Positions 3,158-59,345 of a DNA stretch of 64,000 bases are shown here, one piece after another. Each line of letters begins with the position of its first letter. Position 1 is the first letter of the stretch. Origin of the DNA: an uncultured Planctomycetia bacterium. Its GTDB lineage: Bacteria > Omnitrophota > Gorgyraeia > 1-14-0-20-64-10. The stretch spans positions 1,891 to 65,890 of the forward strand of contig CAYJWF010000004.1 in assembly GCA_964373805.1 (NCBI GenBank), read 5' to 3'. The position numbers and the translations under genes are program-made. Under the pieces are notes generated by a model. That model saw only the letters and a program-made list of their open reading frames with translations, was not told where the DNA came from and did no database searches.

Positions 3158-4329
3158 CCTTGAAGCAGGACGACCGCGTAGGCGGCCATCGCCTCTTTCG
3201 CACCAATGGGACCTAAACCTTCCATCGTCCGGACCTTCACGTTCACTTGGGATTCCTTAACCTTAAGAAGCCTCGCCACGGAGCTGCGAATCGCCTCTCG
3301 ATGGGGACCTAACCGTGGCTCCTCGGTGATGACCATGAGATCGGCGTTGGAAATTTCAAGTTTCCTGGCTCGAATCAGCCGAAGCGCCTTGGCGATGAAT
3401 CGCTGGCTCGGGGCCCCTTTCCATTTGGAATCGGTATCGGGAAAGTGGCTCCCTAAGTCCCCGGCCCCTGCCGCCCCCAGCATCGCGTCGCAGAGGGCGT
3501 GGAGGAGCACGTCCGCATCGGAGTGACCCAGGAGTCCCTTCTTCGCTGGAATCTTCCTTCCCCCTAAGACGAGCGGCCGGCCCGCGATCAACCGATGAAT
3601 ATCAAACCCAATGCCTACTCGCATATCAAAAGGGGTCTGACCCCTTTTGCCTTTCATCAAGGTTTCCGCCATCAAGAGATCATCCTGAGTGGTCACCTTC
3701 AAATTCCGGGGAGAACCTTCCACGATCCGTACCTTGACCCCCATCGCCTCCACCAAGGCTGCGTCATCCGTTGCGGTAACCCGCCTGATTCTTGCCCGAT
3801 GGTGAGCCGATTCCAACAGATCCCGACGAAACACTTGAGGGGTCTGGATCGCCCAGAGGTGGTTTCGATCCAAGGTTTTGGCCACCCATCCGGCCCTGAC
3901 CTGCTTGATCGTCGGAACCACTGGGATAGCCGCCACGGCCGCTTGCGTCCGTTGGGCGGTCCGGATCGTCTCCATAAGGAGCTCCGATGGGACGAGGGGA
4001 CGAGCCCCATCGTGAACCACCACCCACTCTGCCGATGGAGGAAGCGCCTGCAATCCTCGGAAGACTGAGGCGGTCCGAGAAGCGCCTCCCGGGATGATCT
4101 GAATCACCTTCCGATAGCGGTACTTCTGGACCATCCGTTGGACCGCCGCGACATCGTCCCGATGACTGACCACAACCATCCCATCGATCGGACGAGCCTG
4201 CTCCAAGGCGCTTAAGGTCCAAGACAGCATCGGCCGTCCAGCCAACCGGACGAACGGCTTTCGGACCTTCTTCTTAAAACGTCTGCCCTCTCCAGCAGCT
4301 GGGACAATAGCGACAACCCTAGGTGCCAG
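3145..4329 (-). CDS. ispDF: bifunctional 2-C-methyl-D-erythritol 4-phosphate cytidylyltransferase / 2-C-methyl-D-erythritol 2,4-cyclodiphosphate synthase (IspDF)
   Basis: Tracked ORF starts at a TTG (4245). The same frame upstream encodes the conserved IspD N-terminus VVAIVPAAGEGRRF, right up to an in-frame TAG at 4351-4353. The C-terminal half is IspF (GHSDADVLLHAL...). No ATG/GTG/TTG lies between the TAG and the motif; the start is placed at CTG 4327-4329 by inference. Confidence 0.8.
   Translation of the reverse strand: MAPRVVAIVPAAGEGRRFKKKVRKPFVRLAGRPMLSWTLSALEQARPIDGMVVVSHRDDVAAVQRMVQKYRYRKVIQIIPGGASRTASVFRGLQALPPSAEWVVVHDGARPLVPSELLMETIRTAQRTQAAVAAIPVVPTIKQVRAGWVAKTLDRNHLWAIQTPQVFRRDLLESAHHRARIRRVTATDDAALVEAMGVKVRIVEGSPRNLKVTTQDDLLMAETLMKGKRGQTPFDMRVGIGFDIHRLIAGRPLVLGGRKIPAKKGLLGHSDADVLLHALCDAMLGAAGAGDLGSHFPDTDSKWKGAPSQRFIAKALRLIRARKLEISNADLMVITEEPRLGPHREAIRSSVARLLKVKESQVNVKVRTMEGLGPIGAKEAMAAYAVVLLQGCRS
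3628..3650. repeat. P1 palindrome inside ispDF (IspD-IspF linker)
   Basis: AAAAGGGGTCTGACCCCTTTTGCC; encodes GKRGQTPF. Confidence 0.85.
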
Positions 4330-7812: not shown

Positions 7813-9295
7813 ACTCCTCGTCCCGATCCAACCGAACCTGGACCCTTTGCCCGGAAGAAGACAACGGATACGTCAGCTCCAGCTCCTCGCGCGTCACCGA
7901 TTCCGGTTGAACTTCACGATCCACCTCATAAGCGAGGCCCACCGCCATTCGGTCTTCCGCCGTGGAACGGCGCACGCTCAGGCCCGAAACCGAAGGTCTC
8001 TCGCCCGGCACCTCTACAGGCCGCGCGGGAGACTCCACCCCCAGGGGTCCCACGCGCCAGCCTCCCCCAACCCCTAAACTTCTTTCGGTCGAGGAAAGCC
8101 GCACGTTGGAAAGGAAGTCGCTGCGGCCCAACCGTCGAAGATCGACGGTCCCCTCGATGAGCAGCACGCCGCTTGGCTTGGTGATTTGAGAGTTCTGGAT
8201 CTTTAAGATCGGCCCTTCGCCTCTAAAACGCAGCGTCGCCAGGCGGAATCTCTCCCATCCCAAGGACCCTCCTTCGCTGGAAATCTGGCCTTGGCTTTCC
8301 AGTTGACTTAAGGGGCCGGTCAAGGTGACTCGACCATGAATCGGACCGGAAAGGGTCCATCGCTGAGGTCCAGCAAACCAACGGATCCATCTGTCTAAAT
8401 CGGCCCTTTTAAGCTCCAAGTTCAAGTCCACCGGATAGGGTGGCTTTAAACGAATCCGACCATTCAAAGAGGCCTCTTGCCCCAAAAGCTCCGCCTGCAG
8501 GTGAAGATCGGAACGCTCCACCACCCACCGGACCGTCAGCTGTTCAGGAATTTCTTCCTCCTGGCGCGCCCAGATGGTGATCCTTCCCCCGACCCCATGA
8601 GAAGAAACCTCTTTCTTAAGAACCCCTTCTACCCGCCAGGCTCCTTGGAGTTCGGCCTGTTTCAAGCGGATCGCCTCCCGCGAAAGGGACCATTGGCTGA
8701 CGAAATGACTCCTGGGAAAGTGAGCTCCTTCTTCTACGTTTCTGGCTGCGCCAGCGGCCAGTCTAGGAAAGTCCCGCGCCTCAGCGAGGGGCTCCATCCA
8801 TCCTAAAAGGATCGGCTCCTTAACCGTGCCGCTCAACTCCACCATTCCTTTAAAGAACGGATGCTCCAGGGTGAGCCAACCGTCCCACCCGAGCTGCGAT
8901 GAGTTTTCCTTGGCGTCCTGAGCGGTAAGATGCAAGCGGCCCTGCGCTTCAAGAGGGAGGCCGCCCACCGACAGGGATACCCGAGTCACCGTGATAGAGG
9001 TCACGATACCGTCGCGAAAGAACATCTGTGGATTCTCGAAAGCGCTTCGACTGAAGAGTCGCCAAAGCGATCCTTCCATCTGAAGACGTTCAATCGCCAA
9101 AAAGGAGGGTTTTACGGAAACTCCATAAAGGATCAGTTTCTTGGGAGAAAAGGCCAATCGCTGAATGGATACCGGCGCCTTGAAAAGTTGACTTAAACCT
9201 TGGCTCAACCGAACGCGCCCAACCTGAAGGGCCCAGAAGAATCCTCCAGCGCTCACAAGACTCACGCAGAGAAACGCCCCAAAAAACCGTCTCAA
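7781..9295 (-). CDS. membrane-anchored periplasmic protein, possibly AsmA-like; carries an in-frame repeat element
   Basis: N-terminal TM helix then a 480-aa soluble region; no firm family match; contains repeat R1 encoding [12 protein letters not shown]. Confidence 0.4.
   Translation of the reverse strand: MRRFFGAFLCVSLVSAGGFFWALQVGRVRLSQGLSQLFKAPVSIQRLAFSPKKLILYGVSVKPSFLAIERLQMEGSLWRLFSRSAFENPQMFFRDGIVTSITVTRVSLSVGGLPLEAQGRLHLTAQDAKENSSQLGWDGWLTLEHPFFKGMVELSGTVKEPILLGWMEPLAEARDFPRLAAGAARNVEEGAHFPRSHFVSQWSLSREAIRLKQAELQGAWRVEGVLKKEVSSHGVGGRITIWARQEEEIPEQLTVRWVVERSDLHLQAELLGQEASLNGRIRLKPPYPVDLNLELKRADLDRWIRWFAGPQRWTLSGPIHGRVTLTGPLSQLESQGQISSEGGSLGWERFRLATLRFRGEGPILKIQNSQITKPSGVLLIEGTVDLRRLGRSDFLSNVRLSSTERSLGVGGGWRVGPLGVESPARPVEVPGERPSVSGLSVRRSTAEDRMAVGLAYEVDREVQPESVTREELELTYPLSSSGQRVQVRLDRDEEFVGVEHRKKF
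8733..8800. repeat. R1 repeat element, copy in AsmA-like gene
   Basis: TCTACGTTTCTGGCTGCGCCAGCGGCCAGTCTAGGAAAGTCCCGCGCCTCAGCGAGGGG. Confidence 0.8.
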
Positions 9296-13165: not shown

Positions 13166-13216
13166 CGACCCCCCCCCTGATTCGTTTTGCTTCGCAAACC
13201 GAATCAAAACGGTGGG
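13166..13216. repeat. R2 hairpin repeat copy A (C-run / G-run clamped)
   Basis: CCCCCCCCCTGATTCGTTTTGCTTCGCAAACCGAATCAAAACGGTGGGGG; 41-nt core identical to copy B. Confidence 0.8.
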
Positions 13217-13271
13217 GGTGTGCCTTTTCGGGAAGGGTTACAGTCTTAAGTTTACCTGAGGGGCATGCGAG

Positions 13272-14137: not shown

Positions 14138-14188
14138 CCCCACTGATTCGTTTTGCTTCGCAAACCGAATCAAAACGGTGGGGACTCC
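14138..14188. repeat. R2 hairpin repeat copy B (direct repeat of A)
   Basis: CCCCACTGATTCGTTTTGCTTCGCAAACCGAATCAAAACGGTGGGGAC. Confidence 0.8.
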
Positions 14189-14264: not shown

Positions 14265-15257
14265 TTACGCCTGGGACCCTATGCCGAGGGACTGCTCCAA
14301 GCCTGCCGCAAGGATCGAGACCAAGTCCGGCGAAACTCCGAAACCCTTCAAGATCGCATCCATCGAGAACAGCTCCTGCGCGAAGTAAAGACGTAGAACA
14401 TCCGCCGCGACCCGAACCGGATAAACATGTTCCAGCGGACCCAAATAAGTAACTCGGGAAAGACCATGGATTTTCTGGAAGGCGGTTGTTACCGCATCCG
14501 GGGATCGCTCCGGAACGTAATGAATCCGCCGATTCTCACCGACAAGTCCTTCGGCCAACTCCGATTCCCCCAGCAGAACCAGCCGCCCGGCAAACCGATC
14601 CAGCCTCCGGAGAACCTGGACCAAATCAGCATCTAACGTAGCGGCATCCAGAACAACCGCCTGAATCCCCTCGACGCTTGCCTCCGCCATCGCAACCGCC
14701 ATCGCAATCCCCCGATCCCCTTCCTCTACGTTTCTGGCTGCGTTAGCGGCCAGTCCAGGAAAGTGCCGCGCATCAGCGCGGCCTTCCTCCAGCCCAGAGG
14801 GATTACTTTCTCCCGTGGTACCTGGTTTCGCCTCCCGCTCTGACCCTGAGAAATTTCTTAACAATCGAGGAAGGAATCCCATCACCTTACCAGGAATAGC
14901 CCCCTCCCCACCCCGCCAGCGGGAGATCGTCTCCCGACTCACCGGCTTCCCGCCGTTGTACCCTGCACCTGCCAGCGCCTGAGCCATCCCTTCCTGCGTC
15001 AACCCCAGCCAATCCATCACCTGGCCAAACTCTGTATCACCAGCGACTTCCGAATCCGCTGCATCCTCCTCCAGCCCGGCGAAGGCAGCGGAGGAGCCTC
15101 TGGACCCCCCTGGAAAAGCCGCCTCCAGCTCAGAGCTGGCGGCACTTTCCAGGCCAGCCTGGGCACGCAGCGCAAGGGCAACGGAAGGCCGAACAAGCGT
15201 TAGAGCCAAGAAAAGCCCCAACGAGCTTCGCCAACGGTCCATTCGTTCTCTTCTCAT
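14265..15257 (-). CDS. secreted hypothetical protein of the GLEE-motif family, with embedded repeat and an HTH-like segment
   Basis: Signal-peptide-like N-terminus; several (A/S)GLE(E/Q) motifs; C-terminal ...ILAAGLEQSLGIGSQA; segment GLTQEGMAQALAGAGYNGGKPVSRETISRW resembles an HTH; carries repeat R1. Confidence 0.45.
   Translation of the reverse strand: MRRERMDRWRSSLGLFLALTLVRPSVALALRAQAGLESAASSELEAAFPGGSRGSSAAFAGLEEDAADSEVAGDTEFGQVMDWLGLTQEGMAQALAGAGYNGGKPVSRETISRWRGGEGAIPGKVMGFLPRLLRNFSGSEREAKPGTTGESNPSGLEEGRADARHFPGLAANAARNVEEGDRGIAMAVAMAEASVEGIQAVVLDAATLDADLVQVLRRLDRFAGRLVLLGESELAEGLVGENRRIHYVPERSPDAVTTAFQKIHGLSRVTYLGPLEHVYPVRVAADVLRLYFAQELFSMDAILKGFGVSPDLVSILAAGLEQSLGIGSQA
14712..14800. 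repeat. R1 repeat element, longest copy, in GLEE-family gene
   Basis: CTCTACGTTTCTGGCTGCGTTAGCGGCCAGTCCAGGAAAGTGCCGCGCATCAGCGCGGCCTTCCTCCAG; includes hairpin CCGCGC-ATCA-GCGCGG. Confidence 0.8.
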
Positions 15258-16132: not shown

Positions 16133-16185
16133 AGCCCCCCCCCCCCAAGCTTCGCTTTGCGAAGCAAAACGCGGGGGGCCAGCCG
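16133..16185. repeat. R2 hairpin repeat copy C, between convergent genes (possible bidirectional terminator)
   Basis: CCCCCCCCCCCCCAAGCTTCGCTTTGCGAAGCAAAACGCGGGGGG between the lipoprotein gene (+) and mcsB (-). Confidence 0.6.
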
Positions 16186-16186
16186 A

Positions 16187-17230
16187 TTAGAGGGTTTCTC
16201 GCAGGAGTTTGGCGCGGCGGGCGTCCCGTTCGGAAGGGTTTAAGCCGCGGCCCTCCAGCTTCTGAAGATGGGCCGGCTGGGTCTGGATGAAGAGGCGGTT
16301 CACCAGTCCCCGCTCGAGATTGTTCATTAAACCCAGATCGATACCGAGACGCACCAAAGACAAAAGCTCGACCGTCTCGTTGGAGGTGATAAGGTGGGCG
16401 GATTTCAGCGTCCCCAACGCCCGCCAGATCCGATCCTCGAGAGCCTGACGGCTTTGGGTCAGGAGCGCCCGACGGGCCGCCTCCTCCTGCTCGATCACCT
16501 GTTTGATCAACCTTCCCAAGTTGTCCAGGATCTCCTCCTCGGAGACGCCGAGGCTCACCTGGTTGGACAACTGGAAGAGGTTGCCGGAGGCCTCGGTCCC
16601 TTCCCCGTAAAGGCCGCGCGCCGTCAATCCCAATTTGGAAATCGCATGGAGAACCCGGTTGATCTGCTTGGTCATCACGAGACAGGGTATGTGCAGCATA
16701 CAGGAAGCTCGCATCCCGGTTCCTACGTTGGTGGGGCAGGCCGTCAGATACCCCCACTGGGGAGAAAAGGCGTAGGCGAGATGCCCCTCCAACTGGGCAT
16801 CGATCTGACTCAACACCACCCAGGCCTCGGGGAGATTGAACCCCGACTGCAACACTTGAAGCCGCAGGTGATCCTCTTCATTGATCATGAGGGCCAAGAT
16901 CTCCCGGTCGCTCACCACGACCGCCTTTTCTCCGGAGGGGGACGCATGCTCGGGACTGATCAGGTGCCGCTCCGTGAGGAAGAGACGGTCCAGCTCCGTC
17001 AGTTCCGATAGGGCCAAGAGGAGCGACCCTTTCAAGTAGGCGCAAGTTCCCACCGCCTCCTCGATCCGGGCCAAGATTTCGACCCGCCGTTTCTTGCCGG
17101 CCCAGTGAGGAAATGGGGTGTCGCTCAAATTCCTCGCCAGCCGGATCCGGGAGGACATCACGATCTCTCCCTTGGGGCCGGTTCCCCGGAGCCATTCCCC
17201 GGTTTGGTGGACCAGATCGTCAAGGGTCAT
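16187..17230 (-). CDS. mcsB: protein arginine kinase McsB
   Basis: ATP:guanido phosphotransferase catalytic-domain signature (CPTNVGTGMRAS), 347 aa. Confidence 0.85.
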   Translation of the reverse strand: MTLDDLVHQTGEWLRGTGPKGEIVMSSRIRLARNLSDTPFPHWAGKKRRVEILARIEEAVGTCAYLKGSLLLALSELTELDRLFLTERHLISPEHASPSGEKAVVVSDREILALMINEEDHLRLQVLQSGFNLPEAWVVLSQIDAQLEGHLAYAFSPQWGYLTACPTNVGTGMRASCMLHIPCLVMTKQINRVLHAISKLGLTARGLYGEGTEASGNLFQLSNQVSLGVSEEEILDNLGRLIKQVIEQEEAARRALLTQSRQALEDRIWRALGTLKSAHLITSNETVELLSLVRLGIDLGLMNNLERGLVNRLFIQTQPAHLQKLEGRGLNPSERDARRAKLLRETL

Positions 17231-17261
17231 GGAATTACTGCAAACGTATTTAATCGAGAGA

Positions 17262-17345
17262 CGTATCCGCTCGCCCTGAGCCTGTCGAAGGGCGAACCTG
17301 TCTTCGTGCTTCGACTCTGCTCAGCACGAACGGTTGTCACGGCGA
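17262..17345. repeat. R3 nested-hairpin repeat (conserved loop TGAGCCTGTCGAA / TTCGACWNNGCTCA), mcsA-mcsB intercistronic copy
   Basis: TCGCCC-TGAGCCTGTCGAA-GGGCGA followed by TTCGTGC-TTCGACTCTGCTCA-GCACGAA. Confidence 0.7.
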
Positions 17346-17359
17346 ATCTCCAAATCGCC

Positions 17360-17974
17360 TCATCTTTTAGGTCCCTTGCCTTTCACCCTAGATTCTTCAC
17401 CCTTCACTGCCTTTGCCTTTTCCTCCACGGCTCGAACCCGATCCCGAAGACGGGCCGCCTCCTCAAAGGCCTCCGCGGCGACCGCCTTCTTGAGGTTCTC
17501 CTTAAGCCGCGCCAGATCTGTCTCTTCCCCTATGCTTTTAGCGGCATCAGCAGCCCGTCCAGAAAAGTGCCGCGCATCAGCGCGGCCTTCACTTTTCTTG
17601 GCCGCCTTCGGCTGCGAAACGGAAGGACCCTTTCCCACATGTTGGGTGGAACCGTGGATCCGCTTTAACAGGGGAACCAGGTACGGCTCAAACGTCTCGT
17701 AACAGTTCCCGCAGCCAAGCCGACCAACCTTGCGAAACCCTTCGTAAGTCATTCCACACCTGGGGCAGGAAAGCTTGGTTCGCTCGGTCGACTCTCCTTT
17801 AAGCCCGAAGTCGGCGAGGCCGGCCAAAAGGCCTGCTAACCCGAACTCCTGCCCTGCCGCAGTTCCTTTCTCGTGCGCGCAGCTCTCGCAGAGATGGAGC
17901 TCGCGGGTCTGGTCGTCAATGATCTCGGTCAGATGAACCGTCGCCTCGTTTTGTCCACACAGGTCACAGGTCAC
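17360..17974 (-). CDS. mcsA: McsA, activator of protein arginine kinase (zinc-finger / UVR domain)
   Basis: CxxC pairs (CDLCG...CESC; CPRCG...CGNC) and a C-terminal UVR motif (AVAAEAFEEAARLRDRV); carries a partial R1 repeat. Confidence 0.75.
   Translation of the reverse strand: MTCDLCGQNEATVHLTEIIDDQTRELHLCESCAHEKGTAAGQEFGLAGLLAGLADFGLKGESTERTKLSCPRCGMTYEGFRKVGRLGCGNCYETFEPYLVPLLKRIHGSTQHVGKGPSVSQPKAAKKSEGRADARHFSGRAADAAKSIGEETDLARLKENLKKAVAAEAFEEAARLRDRVRAVEEKAKAVKGEESRVKGKGPKR
17533..17600. repeat. R1 repeat element, partial copy (3' half), in mcsA
   Basis: ...CCAGAAAAGTGCCGCGCATCAGCGCGGCCTTCAC; the 33-nt core is identical to the 14712 copy. Confidence 0.75.
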
Positions 17975-17984
17975 AAGCTTTCCT

Positions 17985-18012
17985 CAAAAAGGTACCAGGT
18001 ACCATTTTAAAA
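17985..18012 (-). terminator. putative rho-independent terminator of ilvE (GGTAC-CTG-GTACC hairpin plus U-run)
   Basis: Minus-strand RNA reads ...AAAAUGGUACCUGGUACCUUUUUGAG directly after the ilvE stop. Confidence 0.5.
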
Positions 18013-18017
18013 CCCCA

Positions 18018-18036
18018 ACGGGGTCAGACCCCATCA
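18018..18036. repeat. P1 palindrome, intergenic (ilvE-mcsA)
   Basis: CAACGGGGTCAGACCCCATC. Confidence 0.8.
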
Positions 18037-23679: not shown

Positions 23680-23687
23680 ACCCTTTA

Positions 23688-23730
23688 GATGGTACCAGGT
23701 ACCTTTCTAAAATGGTACCTGATACCATTT
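23688..23730. repeat. P2 twin hairpins GGTACCAGGTACC + GGTACCTGATACC (lnt 3' end / lysS upstream)
   Basis: GATGGTACCAGGTACCTTTCTAAAATGGTACCTGATACCATTTTA. Confidence 0.8.
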
Positions 23731-23732
23731 TA
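23706..23732 (-). terminator. putative rho-independent terminator of lnt
   Basis: Minus-strand RNA ...AAAAUGGUAUCAGGUACCAUUUUAGAAAGG just after the lnt stop. Confidence 0.45.
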
Positions 23733-25178
23733 CGGCCTTCCTCGATGCAAAGATAGGGAATCCACCCCGGATTCAAAGCGAGGAACTGAGGAGATCCGCC
23801 GCCCGGCCGGATCGATGAAGCCGGACCACCCGGTGTTGGCGGCGCGAACCACCCAAACCCGGTTTTCAATCGCACGGAACACGCAGGCCTGCAGATGCTG
23901 AAGCGAGGCAGCCGACCGATGAAACCAGGCGTCGTTGGTGATGACCAGGAGCCACCGGGCCCCTTCCCGAACAAAACGTCGAGACAAATCTGGAAAGAGA
24001 TCCTCGAAGCAGATGAGCACACTGAAGGGAAGGACGTCGTGGGTCTTGAGTCTTGAGTCTTCAGTAAAAGGCTGCCGAAAAGTAGCCGGTTGGAAAACGG
24101 TGAATCGACTTCCGGGGGAGAAATTCCCCATTAAAACGAACCGGCGTAGCCATCCAAAAAAGAACTCGAGGGGGAGGTATTCCCCGAAAGGGACCAGATG
24201 AACCTTGTCGTAACGTTCCACGAGATTCCCTTGGGGGTTTAAAAGGCAAGCGCTGTTAAACATCCTTTCGGTACCTGATACCGTTTCAGTAACCGGTGCC
24301 CCCACCAGTAAAGGAGTGTCCGTGGCTTGCGCCAATTTCTGGAGCCGTTCGAAGATCTCGGGGTCCTCCAAGTATCCAGGTACCGCCGTCTCCGGCCAGA
24401 CGATGAGGTCCGGACGGGATTGAGCGGCTTGACCCGTTAACGTTTCGTAGCGATGCCAGATCTCCTCTTGGAAAACCTCATCCCACTTCTCGGTCTGCGG
24501 GATGTTGCCCTGCACCACCGCAACCCTGAAAGACAGTCGTGGGTCGTGGGTCGTGGGTCGCGAGTAAACCTCAAGCTGGTGAATGCGAAAGGAGCCGTAG
24601 GCCAGCGCAGCAAGCAAACAGGCGCCTGCCAACGCTATAGCGGATAGTCCTTTCCTATACGCTGTACGCTGGACGCTATACGCTAACCAAAGGGCCACGT
24701 TGACCAGAACCACGAGAAAAGAGACCCCGTAGACACCGGTCAAATCGGCGATCTGAATGACCGGAATCCAATTCCACTGGGTGTGAGCGATCAGGTTCCA
24801 TCCGAAGCCGGTCAACCAGGTGTTGCGAAGATACTCCAGAAGAACCCACGCCGCCGGCAAAGTGAGAAGGGGTGTACGGTGTACGGTGTGCGGCGTACGG
24901 CGAAGACCACTCACCATTCTCTGGGCGAGCCAGCCCCAGATCCCAAAATACAGAGCCAGGTATCCGATCAGTAAAACCGTCCCGGGAATCGTCACGTATC
25001 CCACCCACCAGATCGTCCCAGCAAAGAAGAGGATCCCGATAAGATAGCTTTGTAGGAAGGCCTTTCTTGGGGAACTTTTCTCCAGCGCAAGCAGCCAAGG
25101 CAGATAGGCCACCCACGCTAGCCACCCCAAATCAAAAGGCGGGAAACTTAAGACGAAAAGAAGGGCAGAGACAGCCAA
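23730..25178 (-). CDS. lnt: apolipoprotein N-acyltransferase
   Basis: N-terminal multi-TM region plus C-terminal CN-hydrolase domain (CFEDLFP); carries three in-frame heptamer tandem arrays and one GGTACCTGATACC palindrome. Confidence 0.85.
   Translation of the reverse strand: MAVSALLFVLSFPPFDLGWLAWVAYLPWLLALEKSSPRKAFLQSYLIGILFFAGTIWWVGYVTIPGTVLLIGYLALYFGIWGWLAQRMVSGLRRTPHTVHRTPLLTLPAAWVLLEYLRNTWLTGFGWNLIAHTQWNWIPVIQIADLTGVYGVSFLVVLVNVALWLAYSVQRTAYRKGLSAIALAGACLLAALAYGSFRIHQLEVYSRPTTHDPRLSFRVAVVQGNIPQTEKWDEVFQEEIWHRYETLTGQAAQSRPDLIVWPETAVPGYLEDPEIFERLQKLAQATDTPLLVGAPVTETVSGTERMFNSACLLNPQGNLVERYDKVHLVPFGEYLPLEFFFGWLRRFVLMGNFSPGSRFTVFQPATFRQPFTEDSRLKTHDVLPFSVLICFEDLFPDLSRRFVREGARWLLVITNDAWFHRSAASLQHLQACVFRAIENRVWVVRAANTGWSGFIDPAGRRISSVPRFESGVDSLSLHRGRP
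24036..24900. repeat. four separate heptamer tandem arrays inside lnt
   Basis: (GTCTTGA)x2.4 near 24044; (GTCGTGG)x3.4 near 24529; (AGCGTMY)x4 near 24640-24690; (GTGTACG)x4 near 24866. All are kept in frame (encode SRLKT, PTTHDPR, AYSVQRTAYRK, RTPHTVHRTP). Confidence 0.7.
24268..24284. repeat. P2 single hairpin GGTACCTGATACC inside lnt
   Basis: In frame; encodes ...ETVSGTER... Confidence 0.7.
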
Positions 25179-25618: not shown

Positions 25619-28606
25619 TCATGCACCATGACATCGTTTGTATTTCCTGCCACTGCCGCAGTAACAGGGATCGTTCCTTCCCACCTTGGGATGTTCCCGT
25701 CGAAATGGGTGGGAGCTCTCCCGCGCTTCGGCCATCGGACCGGCTCCCACTCCCGGAACAAACGGTTCGTCGGTCCCTTCACGAAACGATTCGGGGTTTA
25801 TCAACGAAGGCGTCGGAGTCGCCGCCTTCGGGGCTTCTGGATGAAGGAACTGTGTCGGCTCCAAAACCCGAGGCCTCGTCTCGGTCCGAACCGCTTGGAT
25901 CTTGAAGATAAGCTCCACGATCTCTTGTCGGACCGATTCCACCATCCGGGTGAACATCTGGTACGCCTCGTGCTGATACTCGACCAACGGATCCTGCTGG
26001 CCGTAGACCCGATAGCCGATCCCTTCCCGCAGGTGGTCCATGGCGTAGAGATGATCCTTCCACTTGGTGTCGATGACCTGAAGCATTACCCACTGCTCCA
26101 GCCGCCGCATCGACCCTTCCCCCAATACCGATTCTCGGGCCTCGTAGGCCTGATGGGCGGCGGTGAGGAGGCTCTGCGCCAGATCTTCTCTTCCTATACG
26201 TTTCTGGCTGCGCCAGCGGCCAGTCGAGGAAAGTCCCGCATCAGCGGGGCTCCCCAACTTCGCGAAGTCGGGGATCGCCACCGAAAACCGGCCTTGGATC
26301 GCCTCGGACAATCCGGAGAGATTCCACTCCTCCGGATCTTGATGAGACAGCGCATAAAGATCCAACAATCCCTGGATCGATTCCTCCACCATCTCGAGGA
26401 TCTTAGGCTTCAACTCTTTACCCTCCAAGACCGCCCGTCGCTCCCGGTAGATCACCTCCCGCTGGCGGTTCATCACGTTGTCGTACTCCAAGAGACGTTT
26501 CCGAATCTCGAAGTTGTGCGTCTCCACCCTCTTCTGGGCCGTCTCGATCGCCCTGGAGAGCCACGGGTGTTCGATCGCCTCCCCTTCGGGGATGGCCGCC
26601 TTGGTCCACTCGAGAAGTCGGTTCTCTCCGAAGATGCGGATCAAGTCGTCGTCCAGGGAAAGGTAGAATCGGCTAGAGCCAGGATCCCCTTGTCGGCCGG
26701 AGCGCCCGCGAAGCTGGTTATCGATCCGGCGGGACTCGTGCCGCTCGGTGCCGAGGACGTGCAGACCCTTCAAGCCTACCACCTGGGCATGTTCCGCCTC
26801 CACTTGGGTCTGCACCTTCGGTTCGATCTCCTTCAAAAGCTCGGCCTCGACTTCCTGTGAAAATTCAGGGACCATCTCCGCCGGAGGCGGGCCCTGCGCT
26901 TGCCCGCCCTCATTTTGGCGGGGGGACCCTCCCTGAGCGAGCTGGTCCTTTCGGCGTTTCAGCTCCGCGGCGATGAGGAATTGGGGATTCCCTCCCAAAA
27001 GGATATCGGTCCCCCGCCCCGCCATGTTGGTGGCGATGGTCACCGCCTTGAATCGCCCGGCCTGAGCGACGATCTGGGCCTCCTGCTCGTGGTATCGGGC
27101 GTTGAGGACGTGGTGCGGGATCTGGCGGCGTTTCAGAAGCTCGCTTAACCGTTCCGACTTCTCAATGGAAACGGTGCCCACCAGGACCGGCCGGCCTTCC
27201 CCGTGCAGCTGGGTGATCTCCTCTTCGATGGCTTGGAACTTTTCCCGTTCGGTCTTGTAGACCACATCCGCGTAGTTGGTTCGAATCAAAGTCCGGTTGG
27301 GGGGGACGGTGACCACCTCCAGACGATAGATCTGGTGGAACTCGGCCGCTTCGGTGGAGGCGGTGCCGGTCATCCCTGCCAGCTTATCGTACATGCGAAA
27401 GTAATTCTGGAAGGTGACCGTGGCCAAGGTCTGGTTTTCCCGTTCGATCCGAACCCCCTCCTTGGCCTCGATCGCCTGATGGAGCCCGTCCGACCAGCGA
27501 CGACCCGGCATGAGCCGGCCGGTAAATTCGTCGACGATCACCACCTGGCCGTCCTTGACCATGTAGTCGACGTCCCGCCGGTATAAGGTGTGGGCCCGGA
27601 GGGCCTGGTTGATGTGATGAACGAGGGTGATGTTGGTGTCCTCGTAGAGGTTGCCCACCTGGAGAAGCCCCTCGGCCTTCTTGACACCCTCCTCGGTTAA
27701 GATCGCCGAGTGGGCCTTCTCATCCACGGAGTAGTCCGCGCCCTTCGCCAGTTTCGGAACGATCCGATCGATCTTGAAATAAAGCTCGGTCGACTCCTCA
27801 GCCGGCCCGGAGATGATGAGGGGCGTTCTCGCCTCATCGATCAAGATCGAGTCGACCTCATCCACGATGGAATACGACAATCCCCTCTGGACGCATTCCT
27901 CCACGGAAACCACCATGTTGTCCCGAAGATAATCAAAGCCGAACTCGTTGTTCGTCCCGTAGGTGACGTCGCATGCGTAAGCGGCCTTACGATCCGAGGC
28001 ACCCATCTCGTGTTGAATCGCCCCGACGGTTAACCCTAAGCTTTCGTAGATCGGTCCCATCCAGTTCCGATCCCGTTTGGCGAGGTAGTCGTTCACCGTC
28101 ACCAGATGGACTCCGCGCCCCAAGAGGCCGTTTAAAAAGACGGCCAGGGTGGCCACCAGGGTCTTGCCCTCACCGGTAGCCATCTCGGCAATCTTTCCCT
28201 GATGGAGAACCATTCCTCCGATCAGCTGCACGTCGAAATGGCGCATGTTCACCGTCCGACGGGCCGCCTCGCGAACCAAGGCGAAGGCCTCTGGGAGAAT
28301 CTCCTCCATCGCCCGATTCTCGATCTTTAAGCGACGCTTCCGTTCCCCCTTCAGTGCGTCTTCGTCGTTGGGATCGATGGAATCGCCCAGTGGGACGGTG
28401 CCATCGGAATCGATTCCGCCTCCGAGTTGTGCGATCCGGGCCTTCAGACGTTGACGCAACGCCTCGGCCTTTTCCTTTAATTGGGAATCGCTTACATCCT
28501 TCACCGTCGGCTCCAGGGCGCTGATCCTTGCCACAACAGGCATCAGCCGCTTCAAGAACCGCTCGTTCTGCGAGCCGACCAGTTTATTGAGGAACCAGTT
28601 CAACAT
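25619..28606 (-). CDS. secA: preprotein translocase ATPase SecA
   Basis: DEAD-like motor motifs and C-terminal zinc-binding [14 protein letters not shown]; 995 aa; carries an in-frame R1 repeat in a variable C-terminal region. Confidence 0.95.
26196..26265. repeat. R1 repeat element (RPE-like), copy in secA
   Basis: CTATACGTTTCTGGCTGCGCCAGCGGCCAGTCGAGGAAAGTCCCGCATCAGCGGGG...; same element at 8733-8800, 14712-14800 and partially at 17533-17600. Confidence 0.8.
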
Positions 28607-31909: not shown

Positions 31910-32040
31910 TAAGAGCCCGTTCGCCCTGAGCTTGGTCGAAGGGTGAACGGGTGGCGTTCGTGGTTCGACAGGCCTGCCCTGAGCAGCAATCCCAAAGGGG
32001 TCGAAGGGCTCACCACGAACGGCCCTTCTCTCTGTCTCGG
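31910..32040. repeat. R3 nested-hairpin repeat, largest copy
   Basis: CCGTTCGCCC-TGAGCTTGGTCGAA-GGGTGAACGG, then TTCGTGG-...GCCCTGAGCAGC...GGGGTCGAAGGGC...-CCACGAA. Confidence 0.7.
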
Positions 32041-32075
32041 AGAGCTGAACTCTTACAAACAAAGGGCGGAAGGAC

Positions 32076-32195
32076 TTTATCCCTTCGGGGACTTCTGATG
32101 CTGATGTCGGTGGCGGTACTGAGACCAGTAGGTGCAGGCAATCCCTACCAAGGCTATGACCGAGAGGAACAGATAGGTGGCTATCGCTGAATTCA
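32076..32195 (-). CDS. tiny single-TM membrane protein B2 (39 aa), paralog of B1
   Basis: MNSAIATYLFLSVIALVGIACTYWSQYRHRHQHQKSPKG; ATG 3 nt after the A2 stop; His/Gln/Arg-rich C-terminus like B1. Confidence 0.45.
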
Positions 32196-32955: not shown

Positions 32956-34417
32956 CTTCCTGTGTCTTGTCTGTCTTTAGATGAATCAGGATTCGCTGGG
33001 CGAGTACCGCAGAGATTCCTCGCACCTGGGTGAGATCCTCGGCAGTGGCCTTGCGGATCGCTTCCACCGAACCGAAGAGAACCAAGAGGTCCTGCCGCCG
33101 GCGGGGCCCCACCCCGGGAACATCATCGAGGGCTGAGCTCAGCGCGTGCTTGCCTCGGAGAAGCCGGTGATAGCCAATGGCGAACCGATGGGCCTCATCC
33201 CGGAGCCGTTGGATGAGCTGCAGCGCCTTCGACTGCGGCGGCAAAACGATCGGCTCCTCGTGGCCAGGCAGGAACAGCTGTTCGAACTCCTTGGCGATCC
33301 CCACAGCCGGCAGATCCAGTTTAAGCTCCCTGAACACCTCCAGGGCGGCGTTGAGATGCCCCTTGCTTCCGTCGATCACCACCAGGTCCGGCCTTTTTTC
33401 GGTACCAGGTACCTTTTTAAGAACGGTGCCTGGCACCGTGAGGGGTTCGTATCGCCGCCGGACGATCTCTTTCATCATGGCGTAATCGTCAATCCCGTGG
33501 ACGCCCCTGATTTTAAATCGACGGTACCCATCCTTGAAAGGGACTCCGTCGACAAAGGTCACCATCGACCCGACCGCCTGACGGCCGAAGAGGTTGGAGA
33601 CGTCAAACCCCTCGATGCGCTGGGGCAGCCGCGGCAACTTGAAGATCGATCGTAAGTCGTCCAAGGCCTCGGCCGGGATCAGCCGCCGGGGACGGACGGT
33701 CAGTTGAAGTAAGCCGGCCACCTGATCCCTGAACCTCGCCGCCTCCTCGTAGCGACGGGTCTGGGAGGCCTCGTTCATCTTCCCTTTAAGATCTTCGAGC
33801 ACCTCCTCCTTTTTGCCTTCCATCAATCGGAAAACCTGGGAGAGGTTTTCTCGATAAGCCGCTGGAGAGATCTTTCCTTCACAGGGCGCTGGGCAAAGCT
33901 TGAGATGATAATCGAGACAAGCCCGTTTCGGCAACGTCCGACAGGTTCTAAAAGGGATCACCCGTCGAATGGCGCCGACGGCTTGCCTGAGCAGTTTGGC
34001 GTTGGTGAAGGGGCCGATCGCCTTGATCCCAGACTCGTGGGTCCCCCGCCCAATGAAAAGCCGAGGAAACTCCTCCTCCACGGTGATCTTTAAGGAGGGA
34101 TACGACTTGTCGTCTCGAAAGGAAACGTTGTACTTAGGTTGATGCTCCTTGATGAGGCTCGCCTCGTAGAGAAGGGCCTCCGCCTCCGAGCCGGTCAAGA
34201 TCCACTCCAAATCGTTCGTCTGCTGAATCAGTCGGAGCAGCTTATCGGTGAGCGGCCGACTGGGTTGAAAGTAGCTTGAGACCCTCTTGCGCAGGGAAAC
34301 GGCCTTGCCAACGTACAGGATCTGGCCGTCAACGTCCTTGAAGAGATAGACCCCGGGGCGGTCGGGAAGCTCGCTTAACTTTTTCTGAAGCGCTGGGGGC
34401 ACCGCTCGGCCAGCCAT
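32918..34417 (-). CDS. uvrC: excinuclease ABC subunit C
   Basis: N-terminal GIY-YIG (GVYLFKD...YVGKA), UVR domain, RNase-H-like endonuclease domain and C-terminal HhH; carries a twin-hairpin insertion encoding TVPGTVLKKVPGTEKR. Confidence 0.85.
   Translation of the reverse strand: MAGRAVPPALQKKLSELPDRPGVYLFKDVDGQILYVGKAVSLRKRVSSYFQPSRPLTDKLLRLIQQTNDLEWILTGSEAEALLYEASLIKEHQPKYNVSFRDDKSYPSLKITVEEEFPRLFIGRGTHESGIKAIGPFTNAKLLRQAVGAIRRVIPFRTCRTLPKRACLDYHLKLCPAPCEGKISPAAYRENLSQVFRLMEGKKEEVLEDLKGKMNEASQTRRYEEAARFRDQVAGLLQLTVRPRRLIPAEALDDLRSIFKLPRLPQRIEGFDVSNLFGRQAVGSMVTFVDGVPFKDGYRRFKIRGVHGIDDYAMMKEIVRRRYEPLTVPGTVLKKVPGTEKRPDLVVIDGSKGHLNAALEVFRELKLDLPAVGIAKEFEQLFLPGHEEPIVLPPQSKALQLIQRLRDEAHRFAIGYHRLLRGKHALSSALDDVPGVGPRRRQDLLVLFGSVEAIRKATAEDLTQVRGISAVLAQRILIHLKTDKTQEGDKSEEDIRKVH
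33400..33442. repeat. P2 twin hairpins GGTACCAGGTACC + GGTGCCTGGCACC inside uvrC
   Basis: TTTTTTCGGTACCAGGTACCTTTTTAAGAACGGTGCCTGGCACCGTG; each hairpin reads VPGT in the uvrC frame (TVPGTVLKKVPGTEKR). Confidence 0.85.
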
Positions 34418-39097: not shown

Positions 39098-40693
39098 TTA
39101 CCACTGAGAACTAGCGAAAGGCCACTGGGCCATCCAGAGAACGAGCTGAGTCAACCCATGCGCCAGCCCCGTAAAGCTGGCGACAAAAGGGGCGGCCAAC
39201 CCTGGATGGATCGCCCCTGCTCCTAACAACCCGATTCCGGTGGCCACCAAAAGCGAGGTCCACGGAACGATGAGGAGATTGGCCAACGGGGCAATGGAGG
39301 TCACCAGATGGAAGTGCCAAGCCACCCAAGGCACCACGGCGACCCAGGCCGCCACGGAAGTGGCCACGGCCTGGGCGATCCACCGCCAGAATCGCCCTTC
39401 GGTGTCCCGTTCGGTGTCAGACACCGAAGCAACTTTTATAAAGATGGTGCAGTGTCTGACACCGTCGGTCAGCAACCTCGCCAACCACGGCGCCAAAACG
39501 AGCAGACCCAGAACCGCCGAAAAGGAAAGCTGAAACCCTGGATCGGCCAACGCTCGAGGACCGACCGAGAGGATCCCCAGCGCCGCCAACCCCAGAAAGT
39601 TGATCTGCGGGTGTTCCCTTCCCCGCCACAAACTTAAGGAAAGCCCGATCCCGGTGATCGTAGCGCGAAGGATGGGGGGATCCGCTCCGGTGAGTAGGCC
39701 GTAGACGGCCAGGATCCCGATCACCATCCCAAAGCGGACAGCGCGCGGGATCCGCAGAATCGTCAATCCTATTCCGGCGATGAATCCGATGAGGCCCACC
39801 TGAAAGCCGCTCACCACCAACACGTGAATCGTCCCGGTCCGGCGAAAGGCTTCCCGCAACGAAGAAGGAATCTCTCCGGGGGTCCCTAGAAGAAGTTCTT
39901 CCAGGTAAGCGGCCTCGAGGGGACCCAGCAGGGAACGGCCAAGCTGTTGAAGCTGCCGCCGAAAGGCCGCCACCCATCGTCGATAACGCACCCAGGGTCC
40001 CCCCATCTGCCCAAGAGACGTCATGGAACTCGGATCCGATACCGTGAGAATTCCACACGCCTCGTTCAGCCAAAGCCAGCGGCGCTCATCCCCCCTCACC
40101 CTTTTCCCTCTCCCCTCAGAGGAGAGGGTGGGGGTAAGGGGCCCACGGATCTCTCCGTGGAGGCGCACCCGGTCCCCGTAAGCCAGCGCGACTCCATACG
40201 TTGGGAGCCGAACCAACACCTTGCCGGAGGCCGGAATCCAGCCGTCCCGCTGCCAAACCTCGGTCAAACGGAGCCACCCTTGCCGACGCGCCGGTCCGGA
40301 GGGAGGTTTGGTCCACTCCACATCGCTGGCCATCACTCCTTTGCAAGTAATGGGCCGCGGTGGCTCTGCTAGGTGACGGGCAATGGAATCGGTCGGCATT
40401 TGGGCATCCACGAAGGCCCGGAAAAATCCGAGGGCTCCGATGAGGAACAAGAGAGCCCCGTTCGCCATCACCGATCGATGCCGAATCCAGTAGTAAATTC
40501 CGGCAACAATTCCGACCCCACCCCCAATCGCCCAGACCGGCGGCTGGATCCACCAGGCCAACCCGATCCCACAGGAAAAAGCTGCGGCCACCGCCGCCAG
40601 GGGCGCCCGATGGGTCGGCTGGCCCCCCGCGTTTTGTTTCGTTGGCGAAGCAAAACGAAACTTGGGGGGCTGGGCAACTGGGGATGGATTCAT
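39098..40693 (-). CDS. comEC: competence protein ComEC/Rec2 (DUF4131 plus competence domain, no beta-lactamase domain)
   Basis: Multi-TM ComEC core; the tracked N-terminus is read through repeat R2 copy D, so the true start is probably further in. Confidence 0.7.
   Translation of the reverse strand: MNPSPVAQPPKFRFASPTKQNAGGQPTHRAPLAAVAAAFSCGIGLAWWIQPPVWAIGGGVGIVAGIYYWIRHRSVMANGALLFLIGALGFFRAFVDAQMPTDSIARHLAEPPRPITCKGVMASDVEWTKPPSGPARRQGWLRLTEVWQRDGWIPASGKVLVRLPTYGVALAYGDRVRLHGEIRGPLTPTLSSEGRGKRVRGDERRWLWLNEACGILTVSDPSSMTSLGQMGGPWVRYRRWVAAFRRQLQQLGRSLLGPLEAAYLEELLLGTPGEIPSSLREAFRRTGTIHVLVVSGFQVGLIGFIAGIGLTILRIPRAVRFGMVIGILAVYGLLTGADPPILRATITGIGLSLSLWRGREHPQINFLGLAALGILSVGPRALADPGFQLSFSAVLGLLVLAPWLARLLTDGVRHCTIFIKVASVSDTERDTEGRFWRWIAQAVATSVAAWVAVVPWVAWHFHLVTSIAPLANLLIVPWTSLLVATGIGLLGAGAIHPGLAAPFVASFTGLAHGLTQLVLWMAQWPFASSQW
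40612..40665. repeat. R2 hairpin repeat copy D at the comEC 5' end
   Basis: CCCCCCGCGTTTTGTTTCGTTGGCGAAGCAAAACGAAACTTGGGGGG. Confidence 0.7.
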
Positions 40694-47303: not shown

Positions 47304-49868
47304 TTAAACGACGAGGCTGATGAGGCGGTTGGGGACGACAATCACCTTCTTCGGCGGCTTGCCATCCAACCAGCGTTGAACGTTGGGATCCTGAAGAACC
47401 TTGGCCTTCAGCTCCTCCTCTTGAGAGCCAACCGGGACCGTCAGATGGGAGCGGACCTTGCCGTTGACCTGCACGACCAGGGTCACCTGCGACTCCTGGA
47501 GGAGGGCAGGATCGTAGGTTGGCCAAGGAGCCTTGGCCAACATCTCCTGGTGGCCCAGCCGTTCCCACAGCTCCTCGGCCAGGTGAGGGGCAAGGGGGTT
47601 TAAAAGCCGGGCCAGCGTCTCGATGGCTTCCTTTCTCTGCCCATCGGAAAGCTGAGGAAAAATCCTCTCCAGGGAGTTCCGATACTCCATCAGGGCGCTG
47701 ATCGCCGTGTTGAACTTGAAGCTCTCCAGATCCTCGGTGACCCGCTTGATCGTCGCGTGGGTGAGGCGCTTAAGCTCACCATCCGATGGAAAACCTGATG
47801 GGGTCAGACCCCTTGGGGTCTGACCCCTTTGACCCTCCACCAAGTTCCAGACCCGATTCATGAACCGCCAGATGCCGTCGATGGCGCTGTCGTTCCATTC
47901 CAGTTGATCCTCCGGGGGAGCGGCGAAAAGGATGAAGAGTCTTAAGGCATCGGCCCCGTACTTGGCGATCACTCCCTCCGGATCGACCACGTTCCCCTTG
48001 GATTTGGACATGACCTCGCCATCCTTCAAAACCATTCCCTGAGTCAAGAGGCGAGAAAACGGCTCTGAGATTGTAAGGAGCCCTAGATCCCGCAGGAACT
48101 TGGTGAAGAAACGGGAATACAGGAGATGCAGGATGGCGTGCTCGATCCCACCGATGTACTGGTCCACCGGCATCCAGAAGGCGGCCTCTTGGGAATCAAA
48201 CGCAGTGGCGGCCGCTTTCGGGGCCGCGTGCGGCTTCGGGGAACAGAACCGCAGGAAGTACCACGAGGAGTCGAAGAAGGTGGCTATGGTGTCGGTCTCT
48301 CGACGGGCCGGTTGCCGACATTTGGGACAGGGCGTCTCCACAAAGGCCTTGACCTTGGCCAACGGTGAGCCCCCGGCTCCTGTGATTGAAACCTTGGGCG
48401 GCAAGGTGACCGGCAACTGGTTCTCAGGAACCGGCACGGTCCCGCAACGGGAGCAGTAAACGATCGGGATGGGAGTCCCCCAGTACCGCTGTCGAGAGAT
48501 GAGCCAATCCCGAAGCCGCCAATGGGTCGTCCGCTGGCCAAATCCATTCTCCTCCATCCAGGCGGCGATCTTTCCCTTACCCTCTTGACTAGACAGACCA
48601 TTAAACTGGGCGGAGTTGACCTGGATCCCTTCCCCTTCGAAGGCCTCTTTCCATCGGCTGGGATCAGGGACAGTCCCCGAAGCTTGCCCTGAGCTTGTCG
48701 AAGTGGGAGACGGTCCCTGAGGAGGCTGGATCACGACTCGGATCGGAAGTCGATGTTCCTTGGCGAACAGAAAATCCCGCTGATCGTGCGCCGGGACCGC
48801 CATGATCGCCCCGGTGCCGTACTCCATGAGGACATAATCGGCCACCCAGATCGGGATTGCCTCTGCGTTCACCGGGTTGATGGCCATCCGCCCGGTGAAA
48901 ATCCCCTCCTTCTTTCTATCGGCGGCGGTCCGGACCTCTCTGGGCTGGCGCTTCACCCGATCGATGAAGGCCCGAACCTGGGGCCCTTTAGGGTTACCTT
49001 GAAGAAGCTCCTCGACGACCGGATGTTCTGGCGCCAAAACGACGTAGGTGGCGCCAAAGATCGTGTCCGGCCGGGTGGTAAAGACCGGAAGTTTTGTCGA
49101 GCTGTTCTGAATGGAAAATTGGATCCGAACCCCTTGGCTCTTCCCGATCCAGTTCCGTTGCATGGTTAAGACACGCTCCGGCCAGCGGCCCAAGGTATCC
49201 AGGTCCTGCAGGAGTTCCTCCGCATACGCGGTGATTTTCAAGAACCACTGCTCCAACTCCTTCGGCTCCACGGCGGTTCCACAGCGCCAGCAGCCGTCTT
49301 GGACCACCTCCTCGTTGGCCAGGGTCGTCTGACAACTGGGACACCAGTTGACCGTGGCTCCGGCCCGATAGGCGAGGCCCTTCTCGAACATCTTGAGGAA
49401 GATCCACTGGTTCCATCGGTAATAGTCCGGCTGGCAGGTCACCACCTCTCGATTCCAGTCGTAGGAGAATCCCAAACGTTTCAAGCCGGTTCGCACCTCT
49501 CCGATGCACCGGAAGGTCCACTCGGCCGGATCCACCTTCTGTTTGATCGCCGCGTTCTCCGCCGGCTGGCCAAAGGCATCGAATCCCGTGGGATGAAGGA
49601 CCCGGTACCCCTGGGCCATCCGAAACCGGGCCAGGACGTCGCCGATCGTGTAGTTCCGGACATGCCCCATGTGGAGGCGCCCCGAGGGATAGGGGAACAT
49701 TTCCAGGAGGTAATATTTTCCTCTTCCGGTGTCTGGCACCGACCCGACCTTTGGCTCCTTCGGGGTGCCTGACACCGGTGTGGCCTGGAAGATCTTCGCC
49801 TCTTCCCACCGCCGCTGCCACTTTTCTTCGATTTCTTGAAATGGGTAAGCCATCGTCGGAAAAGCCAT
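47304..49868 (-). CDS. leuS: leucyl-tRNA synthetase
   Basis: HIGH (HMGHVRN) and KMSKS motifs; 854 aa; carries two in-frame repeat insertions. Confidence 0.95.
47798..47830. repeat. two tandem P1 palindromes inside leuS
   Basis: GATGGGGTCAGACCCCTTGGGGTCTGACCCCTTT; encodes [12 protein letters not shown]. Confidence 0.85.
48655..48700. repeat. R3-related segment inside leuS coding sequence
   Basis: ...GCTTGCCCTGAGCTTGTCGAAGTGGGAG...; in frame; encodes part of the [14 protein letters not shown] linker in LeuS. Confidence 0.5.
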
Positions 49869-59276: not shown

Positions 59277-59345
59277 CCTTCGACAGGCTCAGGGTGAACG
59301 GCAATGTTCGTGCTTCGACAAGCTCAGCACGAACGGTTTTGCACG
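59269..59345. repeat. R3 nested-hairpin repeat, two tandem units
   Basis: CCGTTCACCC-TTCGACAGGCTCAG-GGTGAACGG then GTTCGTGC-TTCGACAAGCTCA-GCACGAAC. Confidence 0.7.

Follow-up and report, generated by a model that had tools for sequence, protein, structure and literature searches.

The stretch of DNA analysed here (the window, 64,000 nt) comes from an Omnitrophota genome and carries the genes mcsA and mcsB, which, like their mRNA, lie on the minus strand and are separated by a 129-nt spacer containing a doublet of hairpins (Table 1). The assignment of the two genes in an earlier note on this sequence was confirmed: McsB matches kinases with the PF00217 and McsB_C domains, and its homologues are named as Candidatus Omnitrophica proteins, while McsA aligns with UVR-domain McsA proteins and has a diverged C-terminal tail. 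The hairpins between the genes are likely to be a copy of a small palindromic repeat, interspersed and non-coding, with the behaviour of selfish DNA of the repetitive extragenic palindromic (REP) or REP-doublet (REPIN) type. The repeat unit consists of a conserved 13-nt loop, TTCGACARGCTCA, 3–4 freely covarying base pairs adjacent to the loop and, in this genome, the outer arms CCGTTCG/CGAACGG.

Three sites in the window contain two 33-nt hairpins each (site 1, 17267-17333; site 2, 31917-32022; site 3, 59269-59336). The loops of all six are TTCGACA(N)GCTCA or near variants of it, while the stems are unlike among the copies yet retain their complementarity, and all of the stems and loops reported by the earlier note were present where it had placed them. 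Its description of every copy as a tandem of two hairpins needs amending, as there are indeed two hairpins per site, but the two have opposite orientations at sites 1 and 2 and form a direct tandem only at site 3. The exact 13-mer TTCGACANGCTCA occurs four times in the window and in none of 100 dinucleotide shuffles. The individual hairpins have fold energies of −10.9 to −19.1 kcal/mol, with minimum free energies (MFE) of −15.6 kcal/mol for unit A of site 1 (z = −2.7), −14.2 kcal/mol for 31917-31950 and −19.1 kcal/mol for 59269-59301 (z = −4.6). Units A and B of site 1 fold jointly into one long REPIN-like hairpin, the pair at site 3 folded as one gives z = −5.0, and the complete mcsA-mcsB spacer reaches −51.3 kcal/mol (z = −3.95). 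At site 2, the stem of 31917-31950 includes one position that reads G.T on the plus strand and A.C on the minus strand, and the loop of the second unit (31954-32022) is interrupted by a nested unit in the opposite orientation (31976-32009). The loop of this nested unit is itself enlarged by AGCAATCCCAAAGGG. Related loci totalling 2.2 Mb contained no second case of nesting, but the one at site 2 suggests that the loops could be sites of breakage and insertion.

The spacer between mcsA and mcsB is absent from related genomes. In five independent relatives, the stop of mcsA and the start of mcsB share 4 nt (ATGA or GTGA) and no spacer is present, and the covariance model of the repeat (R1, described below) found no copies in 62.7 kb of relatives (L121-L125). 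McsB identity to the relatives is 92% (L246), 90% (L121), 79% (L124/L125), 79% (the P0008 contig) and 78% (L122/L123). Because all five have overlapping genes, the ~99-nt block at 17237-17335 is to be regarded as an insertion rather than a conserved mcs regulator, and on this comparison it is specific to the present lineage. A dedicated role of the hairpins in the mcs operon is not supported, as they are absent from the same junction in the five relatives. Sequences resembling the ancestral junction flank the block on both sides, and mcsA now terminates 12 nt upstream of the duplicated sequence. The two flanking copies look like an 11–12-nt imperfect target duplication that kept both stop and start, a reading drawn from this single site. 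The alignment to L121 is ambiguous for the boundaries of the insertion, as L121 itself has CCGTTCGCC at the junction. There (L121, 975-989) this sequence, which is identical to the hairpin arm, stands directly before the ATGA junction, with GGTCGAA 30 nt upstream, and could reflect a target preference, the scar of a lost element or chance. The interval between mcsB and clpC is ~55 nt in the relatives and several kilobases here, where it contains several palindromic repeats. A search for contigs of the same population using the exact McsB sequence returned no record. The 22-mer ACGTCTCTCGATTAAATACGTT, which adjoins the window hairpins, had one exact match, where ~0.1 would be expected by chance, in an unrelated metagenome contig (L248, 4557-4578); it lies in a divergent intergenic region beside a MoeB/ThiF-like gene and is probably a chance match.

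The stems of the repeat covary. In an ungapped alignment of 147 distinct units from many genomes, in which the innermost pair is largely fixed by the search pattern, the three loop-adjacent pairs were paired in 88%, 93% and 98% of units, while pairs farther out were paired in only 35–60%. The pair types were diverse (CG 56, UA 35 and GC 32 at one position; CG 82 and GC 48 at the next), and the covariation score was 0.476 compared with 0.173 in shuffles (none of 500 reached 0.476) and at most 0.178 with slid partners. The view of the earlier note that the stems covary around a conserved loop is thus supported. The covariance model R1 was built from these 147 units, three of them from the window, and independently recovered three further window copies that lay outside the training set: 31917-31950 (30 bits, E = 1.2e-5), 48680-48712 (25 bits, E = 2.6e-4) and unit B of site 1 at 17300-17333 (20 bits, E = 0.006). 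Unit A scored 42.8 bits, though this copy is part of the training alignment. The two halves of a doublet bear different variable stem triplets, which is evidence that the conserved structure is the local hairpins too and not the long hairpin alone. Mismatch correction in a folded palindrome could also restore complementary stems with no selection involved, and covariation is therefore not by itself proof of an RNA function.

The copy at 48680-48712 is a stemless relic with the exact 13-mer loop (48690-48702), lying in frame within leuS. It codes for 11 residues inside a 15-residue insertion relative to Thermus thermophilus LeuRS, located between the editing and catalytic regions in an alignment to the structure in the PDB, and probably derives from a unit that inserted in frame long ago. 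Two further places in the window may be diverged relatives or chance: 60261-60289, where the family arms surround an unrelated loop (MFE −15.9 kcal/mol, z = −4.1) and R1 gives no match, and 54579-54616, where R1 gives 14 bits (E = 0.24).

Beyond the window, the pattern CTTCGACANGCTCAG (loop plus closing pair) was scanned against one genome per species, 596 Gb in total, and was found at no fewer than 120 loci, with 181 units among the matches listed. Around 4,400 matches to this pattern are expected by chance in 596 Gb. As 82% of the 181 units had at least two further stem pairs, compared with ~14% by chance, most of them are true members of the family. Their profile shows an asymmetric core of a 3–4 bp stem and the loop, often followed by GNN-CGAACGG, while the 5' side beyond the stem is unconserved; the 3' flank is frequently GNNCGAACGG. 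This core was found in at least 10 phyla, including the Bacteroidota, Chloroflexota, Cyanobacteriota, Alpha-, Beta- and Gammaproteobacteria, Actinomycetota, Nitrospirota, NC10, Planctomycetota, Acidobacteriota and Omnitrophota, and others. The outer tail is lineage-biased, with CGAACGG in the Beta- and Gammaproteobacteria, the Chloroflexota and the window, TGACA in the Bacteroidota and CGCCCGG in Microbacterium. Among cultured organisms, it is carried by plasmids of Comamonas, Moraxella osloensis, Novosphingobium, Microbacterium and Sphingobium. In Sphingobium a ~1-Mb replicon can hold it in as many as 20 places, and the megaplasmids of Sphingobium sp. Tom* have 14–20 matches each. Of viral sequences, 52% of the matches in IMG/VR viral contigs had at least three stem pairs. 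In contrast, none of the 5,426 complete genomes of E. coli contained a match to the core, and the distribution of the family is thus very wide but patchy. The right half of a unit has expanded into tandem 14-nt repeats, such as (GACAAGCTCAGGAC)n, in a member of the Dehalococcoidia (L033, 5219-5424) and in L111 (4129-4212), while whole units form an array with a 54-nt period in Microbacterium mangrovi (L006, 4449-4625).

Sequence outside long open reading frames (ORFs) made up 15% of the total and held 65% of the units. For plasmids, 39 of 40 among the matches listed were under no annotated coding sequence, and the remaining one was in an unannotated record. One plasmid copy lies between narX and narL in Moraxella osloensis, where an empty site could not be found, as all seven related plasmids carry the element. 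Copies that keep the reading frame also occur inside genes, as in leuS here and in a phage ORF of L205. Among neighbouring units no more than 150 nt apart in the loci listed, 55 pairs were inverted and 13 direct, and the commonest layout was CCGTTCG-hairpin-spacer-hairpin-CGAACGG, whose MFE structure is one long hairpin. Of the units between co-directional flanking genes, 29 were oriented in the same way as the genes and 26 in the opposite way, and both orientations occur within one site. There is accordingly no strand bias and no fixed orientation to transcription, which speaks against a strand-specific RNA hairpin.

Taken as a selfish REP-like repeat, the mcsA-mcsB doublet would have arisen when two units and ~30 nt of additional sequence inserted exactly at the overlapping mcsA stop and mcsB start in this Omnitrophota lineage, which would have split the ancestral translational coupling and left junction sequence on either side. 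Copies would spread or persist only when able to form a hairpin in single-stranded DNA, and a trans-acting factor would read the loop. The stems would remain complementary whatever their sequence because only hairpin-forming copies would have been propagated or retained. As the doublet lies within an operon it must be transcribed, and the transcript would form stable RNA hairpins, or one long hairpin of ~25 bp, between the cistrons. With the 4-nt overlap replaced by a structured spacer, translational coupling would be lost. Effects on mcsA/mcsB mRNA decay, RNase III cleavage and mcsB translation are possible, as a by-product and not as the reason for the element, and by analogy to REP elements an influence on segmental mRNA stability in the mcs operon is plausible.

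REP and bacterial interspersed mosaic elements (BIME) of E. coli and the REPINs of Pseudomonas fluorescens (Bertels & Rainey 2011, PMC3116915; Nunvar et al. 2010, PMC2817692) are also imperfect palindromes, short and rich in GC, with an interspersed and mainly extragenic distribution. They too lie between co-directional or convergent genes, often as inverted doublets forming a longer hairpin; each genome has several types of stem sequence, and genes occasionally contain copies in frame. The present units agree with REP elements in size and position, being 33 nt long, repeated and mainly extragenic, and with REPINs in the predominance of inverted doublets, as at sites 1 and 2. In contrast to those elements, the large 13-nt loop is the most conserved part of the unit, the obligatory stem is 3–4 bp in most genomes, and many phyla share the core. 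Elements of this kind are already known, and the copy at mcsA/mcsB is ordinary in its effect on the locus; it is the cross-phylum family with a 13-nt loop that is unusual and that has, as far as we found, no published description. The motif was not found in the REP surveys PMC3733652, PMC6006769 and PMC12306157, and neither the 13-mers nor their translated peptides are described in the open-access literature that was searched, although an earlier description elsewhere is possible.

Several observations weigh against the selfish-repeat reading. No empty and filled pair of sites was near enough to settle the boundaries of the insertion, and the copies in this genome were counted within 64 kb only. 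A mobilising enzyme was not found: tblastn searches of the window with IS200 TnpA, an E. coli REP-associated tyrosine transposase (RAYT) and the RAYT from L018, the first two being approximate queries, recovered no Y1/HUH transposase. Among the 120 loci listed there were two RAYT-like genes (L018 and L035, with HUH and Y motifs), each flanked by its own, different hairpins. In 28 doublets from other genomes there was no target-site duplication, the distribution matching the permuted control, and the duplicated mcs junction may therefore be a special case. Finally, the 13-nt loop is identical across phyla, unlike known REP families, which are lineage-specific (PMC12306157), and this argues for a constraint beyond selfish copying.

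That the units are bona fide REP/REPIN elements, mobilised by a RAYT encoded elsewhere in the genome whose HUH-Y1 domain cleaves and rejoins hairpins in single-stranded DNA, is unlikely. Short palindromic units, inverted doublets that form a long hairpin, extragenic positions and in-frame relics would all be expected of such elements, and some carrier genomes do encode RAYT-like genes, the one in L018 (4565-5065) lying 90 nt from a unit. However, the two such genes are not clearly above background. RAYT-linked REPs are defined by a GTAG/GTGG foot and a loop of 2–5 nt (PMC6006769, methods; PMC3733652) on a stem of 7–20 bp, or by a bulged long hairpin, whereas the present units have flanks of CCGTTCG.../...CGAACGG with neither this foot nor CGTC, a 13-nt loop and, outside this genome, only 3–4 bp that are reliably paired. 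The motif is also missing from the REPtron tables (RAYT genes flanked by their own REPs) of Quentin et al., and no RAYT flanked by these units was found in the loci. The CGTC-tagged REPs (Di Nocera et al. 2013, PMC3733652) are similar in being a palindromic superfamily in several phyla, mostly as head-to-head dimers, for which no dedicated transposase has been identified, but their 8–9 bp stems starting with A/T pairs, 4–5 nt loops, terminal CGTC and CCA tail have no counterpart here. The general REP-type reading offered in the earlier note fits the extragenic position, the inverted doublets and the insertion polymorphism, but its link to a RAYT is not supported in the window and loci examined. 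A weak tblastn match to IS200 TnpA close to site 2 (32036-32143, E = 2.9) was rejected as spurious, the DNA encoding two small membrane-protein ORFs in other frames.

Equally, we consider it improbable that the hairpins are a host-selected structured RNA, in which a protein-binding mRNA hairpin, recognised by its loop, would control stability, processing or translation. The strongly conserved loop, covarying stem and stable RNA folds would fit such a role, as would locations between cistrons or downstream of genes, for example in mcsA-mcsB and narX-narL, and because an inverted doublet presents both versions of the loop on either strand, the missing strand bias does not exclude it for doublets. 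Single units, however, face both ways, and the element is not kept at the orthologous position, the mcsA-mcsB junction of the five relatives, where a cis-regulatory RNA of the mcsA-mcsB(-clpC) operon would be expected to be conserved. Copies are also found within coding sequences, phage contigs and tandem arrays, and on the strand that carries the flanking genes the stem at 31917-31950 contains an A.C mismatch. No Rfam family matched at gathering thresholds, and E values up to 10 yielded only chance-level microRNA and snoRNA matches. Absence of the family from E. coli means that no universal factor is implied. An intrinsic terminator was not predicted at 17231-17359, where no T run follows the hairpins.

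It is very unlikely that the doublet is a MITE (miniature inverted-repeat transposable element), that is, a deletion derivative of a DDE-type insertion sequence (IS) with the arms as terminal inverted repeats, moved with target-site duplication. The inverted arms and the TTCGCC-RTGAC on both sides of the 99-nt insert are what such an element would leave, and MITEs such as Correia/NEMIS and ERIC (Delihas 2011, PMC3184786) are likewise non-autonomous, ~70–150 nt long, bounded by inverted arms and able to fold as RNA when co-transcribed and to alter the expression of neighbours. Set against this, the 28 doublets elsewhere showed no flanking direct repeats above the control, and 2.2 Mb of loci contained no matching pair of ends around a transposase-sized interval that could represent a parent IS; where units lie far apart, the sequence between them contains genes of housekeeping or phage type, such as ffh/ubiG or those for a phage capsid. 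When split units were sought, as TTCGAC...GCTCA separated by no more than 4 kb and flanked by complementary sequence, the results were limited to the nested copy in the window, minor enlargements of the loop and pairs due to chance. Furthermore, the variable base pairs sit between a conserved arm and a conserved loop, unlike terminal inverted repeats, and the unit is a single 33-nt hairpin that combines in either orientation. A duplex DNA binding site for a dimeric protein, such as an operator or a nucleoid-protein site, with the 13-mers as half-sites, would account for their frequent inverted pairing but is extremely improbable given spacings of 4 to >100 nt between 13-mers, the many direct tandems and singletons, a local stem covariation that has no role in a duplex site and the lack of a tie to any particular neighbouring gene.

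Selfish spread of a REP-like repeat remains the reading we prefer, and it can be extended, tentatively and with considerable doubt, to the family as a whole. Hairpins with the loop TTCGACARGCTCA might form a single widely dispersed family in at least 10 phyla, plasmids and phage contigs that is untied to RAYTs or known IS and whose loop is read by an unrecognised, patchily distributed factor, such as an HUH-type nuclease or a replication or repair protein acting on single-stranded DNA hairpins. This would represent a new cross-phylum class of mobile hairpin. At the origins of HUH-Rep replicons, such as CRESS-DNA viruses and rolling-circle plasmids, hairpins with a conserved loop on a variable but paired stem bear the mark of a nuclease by which the loop is read in single-stranded DNA. 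The analogy would be partial, as an origin hairpin occurs once per replicon beside a rep gene, whereas the present family has many dispersed copies and no linked gene.

Table 1 Features of the mcsA-mcsB locus, hairpin units and other palindromes in the window.
Feature	Position	Strand	Description
mcsB	16187-17230	minus	protein arginine kinase, 347 aa
mcsA	17360-17974	minus	204 aa; stop 17360-17362
Downstream copy of ancestral junction	17226-17236	minus	AATTCC-ATGAC, holds present mcsB start codon; resembles L121 TTCGCCATGAC and L246 AATCCGTGAC
Inserted block, ~99 nt	17237-17335	none	hairpin doublet plus ~30-nt A+T-rich arm; missing at mcsA/mcsB junction in 5/5 relatives; boundaries approximate
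Upstream copy of ancestral junction	17336-17347	minus	ATTCGCC-GTGAC; old stop/start GTGA now out of frame with mcsA
Site 1, unit A	17267-17299	minus	stem-loop 17269-17297; stem GTTCGCCC/GGGCGAGC; loop TTCGACAGGCTCA at 17277-17289 on minus strand
Site 1, unit B	17300-17333	plus	stem-loop 17303-17330; stem TTCGTGC/GCACGAA; variant loop TTCGACTCTGCTCA; inverted relative to unit A
Site 2, unit 1	31917-31950	minus	10-bp stem CCGTTCGCCC/GGGTGAACGG; loop with one extra base (TTCGACCAAGCTCA, minus strand)
Site 2, unit 2	31954-32022	plus	stem-loop 31955-32021; stem CGTTCGTGG/CCACGAACG; loop split: TTCGACAGGC, 36 nt, TCA
Site 3, unit 1	59269-59301	plus	perfect 10-bp stem CCGTTCACCC/GGGTGAACGG; loop TTCGACAGGCTCA
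Site 3, unit 2	59304-59336	plus	stem-loop 59305-59335; 9-bp stem GTTCGTGC/GCACGAAC; loop TTCGACAAGCTCA; direct tandem with 59269-59301
Stemless relic	48680-48712	minus	exact 13-mer loop, in frame in leuS (47304-49868, minus)
Possible relative	60261-60289	none	family arms CCGTTCGCC/GGCGAACGG around unrelated 11-nt loop GAATCTTTCGT
Possible relative	54579-54616		loop halves TTCGAC...GCTCA around 11-nt expansion; 8-bp stem CATGATCC/GGATCATG
Other palindromes, first group	2123-2152, 3622-3651, 18006-18032, 47790-47834		short repeats
Other palindromes, second group	17982-18012, 23682-23735, 33392-33437, 63801-63847		short repeats
Other palindromes, third group	13172-13217, 14138-14183, 16136-16186, 40615-40669, 60109-60154		short repeats

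Small repeats of other kinds are known to enter genes or one another: Rickettsia palindromic elements (RPE) may sit in frame in protein genes, and cyanobacterial small dispersed repeats (SDR) can insert into one another. By analogy these would parallel, respectively, the relic within leuS and the nesting seen at 31954-32022, but their sequences are unrelated and they are confined to one genus or phylum. The window itself contains a separate repeat of ~66–68 nt, which lies in frame within four minus-strand ORFs (8722-8789, 14714-14781, 17518-17585 and 26184-26251), namely an unknown 504-aa ORF, the ORF at 14265-15257, mcsA and secA. In McsA it gives a 22-aa insertion, SEGRADARHFSGRAADAAKSIG (17518-17585), that is missing in three orthologues, while other copies read ...RADARHFPGLAANAARNVEEG... 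or, in SecA, use another frame. This repeat contains the hairpin GCCGCGC-N4-GCGCGGC and appears similar to the in-frame elements of Rickettsia.

Further palindromic families in the window are GGGGTCAGACCCC, GGTACCAGGTACC / GGTGCCAGGCACC and palindromes of the form CCCCC-...AAAACGAAGC.... The GGTACCAGGTACC / GGTGCCAGGCACC palindromes often carry A/T runs and resemble bidirectional terminators. A match to the c-di-GMP-I riboswitch at 63753-63865 (36.6 bits, with an Rfam gathering threshold of 35) overlaps two GGTGCCAGGCACC palindromes and may be a false positive driven by these repeats.

If the mcsA-mcsB hairpins are a selfish repeat, the separation of the two genes in this lineage is explained by its having split an ancestral overlapping gene pair, and in annotation they should not be given the role of a conserved regulator in the McsAB/ClpC stress system. 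Repeats of the REP type are thought to be lineage-specific and, where they are understood, tied to RAYTs, whereas the family described here crosses phyla and has no RAYT link in the data examined. Should the same be true genome-wide, this would point to an unknown mobilising or binding factor, for which the 13-mer within a hairpin would serve as a marker in a search for phylogenetic co-occurrence. The family also gives rise to spurious ORFs and peptide insertions (…LSLSKGE…, …LRQAQGER… and …FDKLRANG…), and its recognition would therefore help the annotation of the genomes that carry it.

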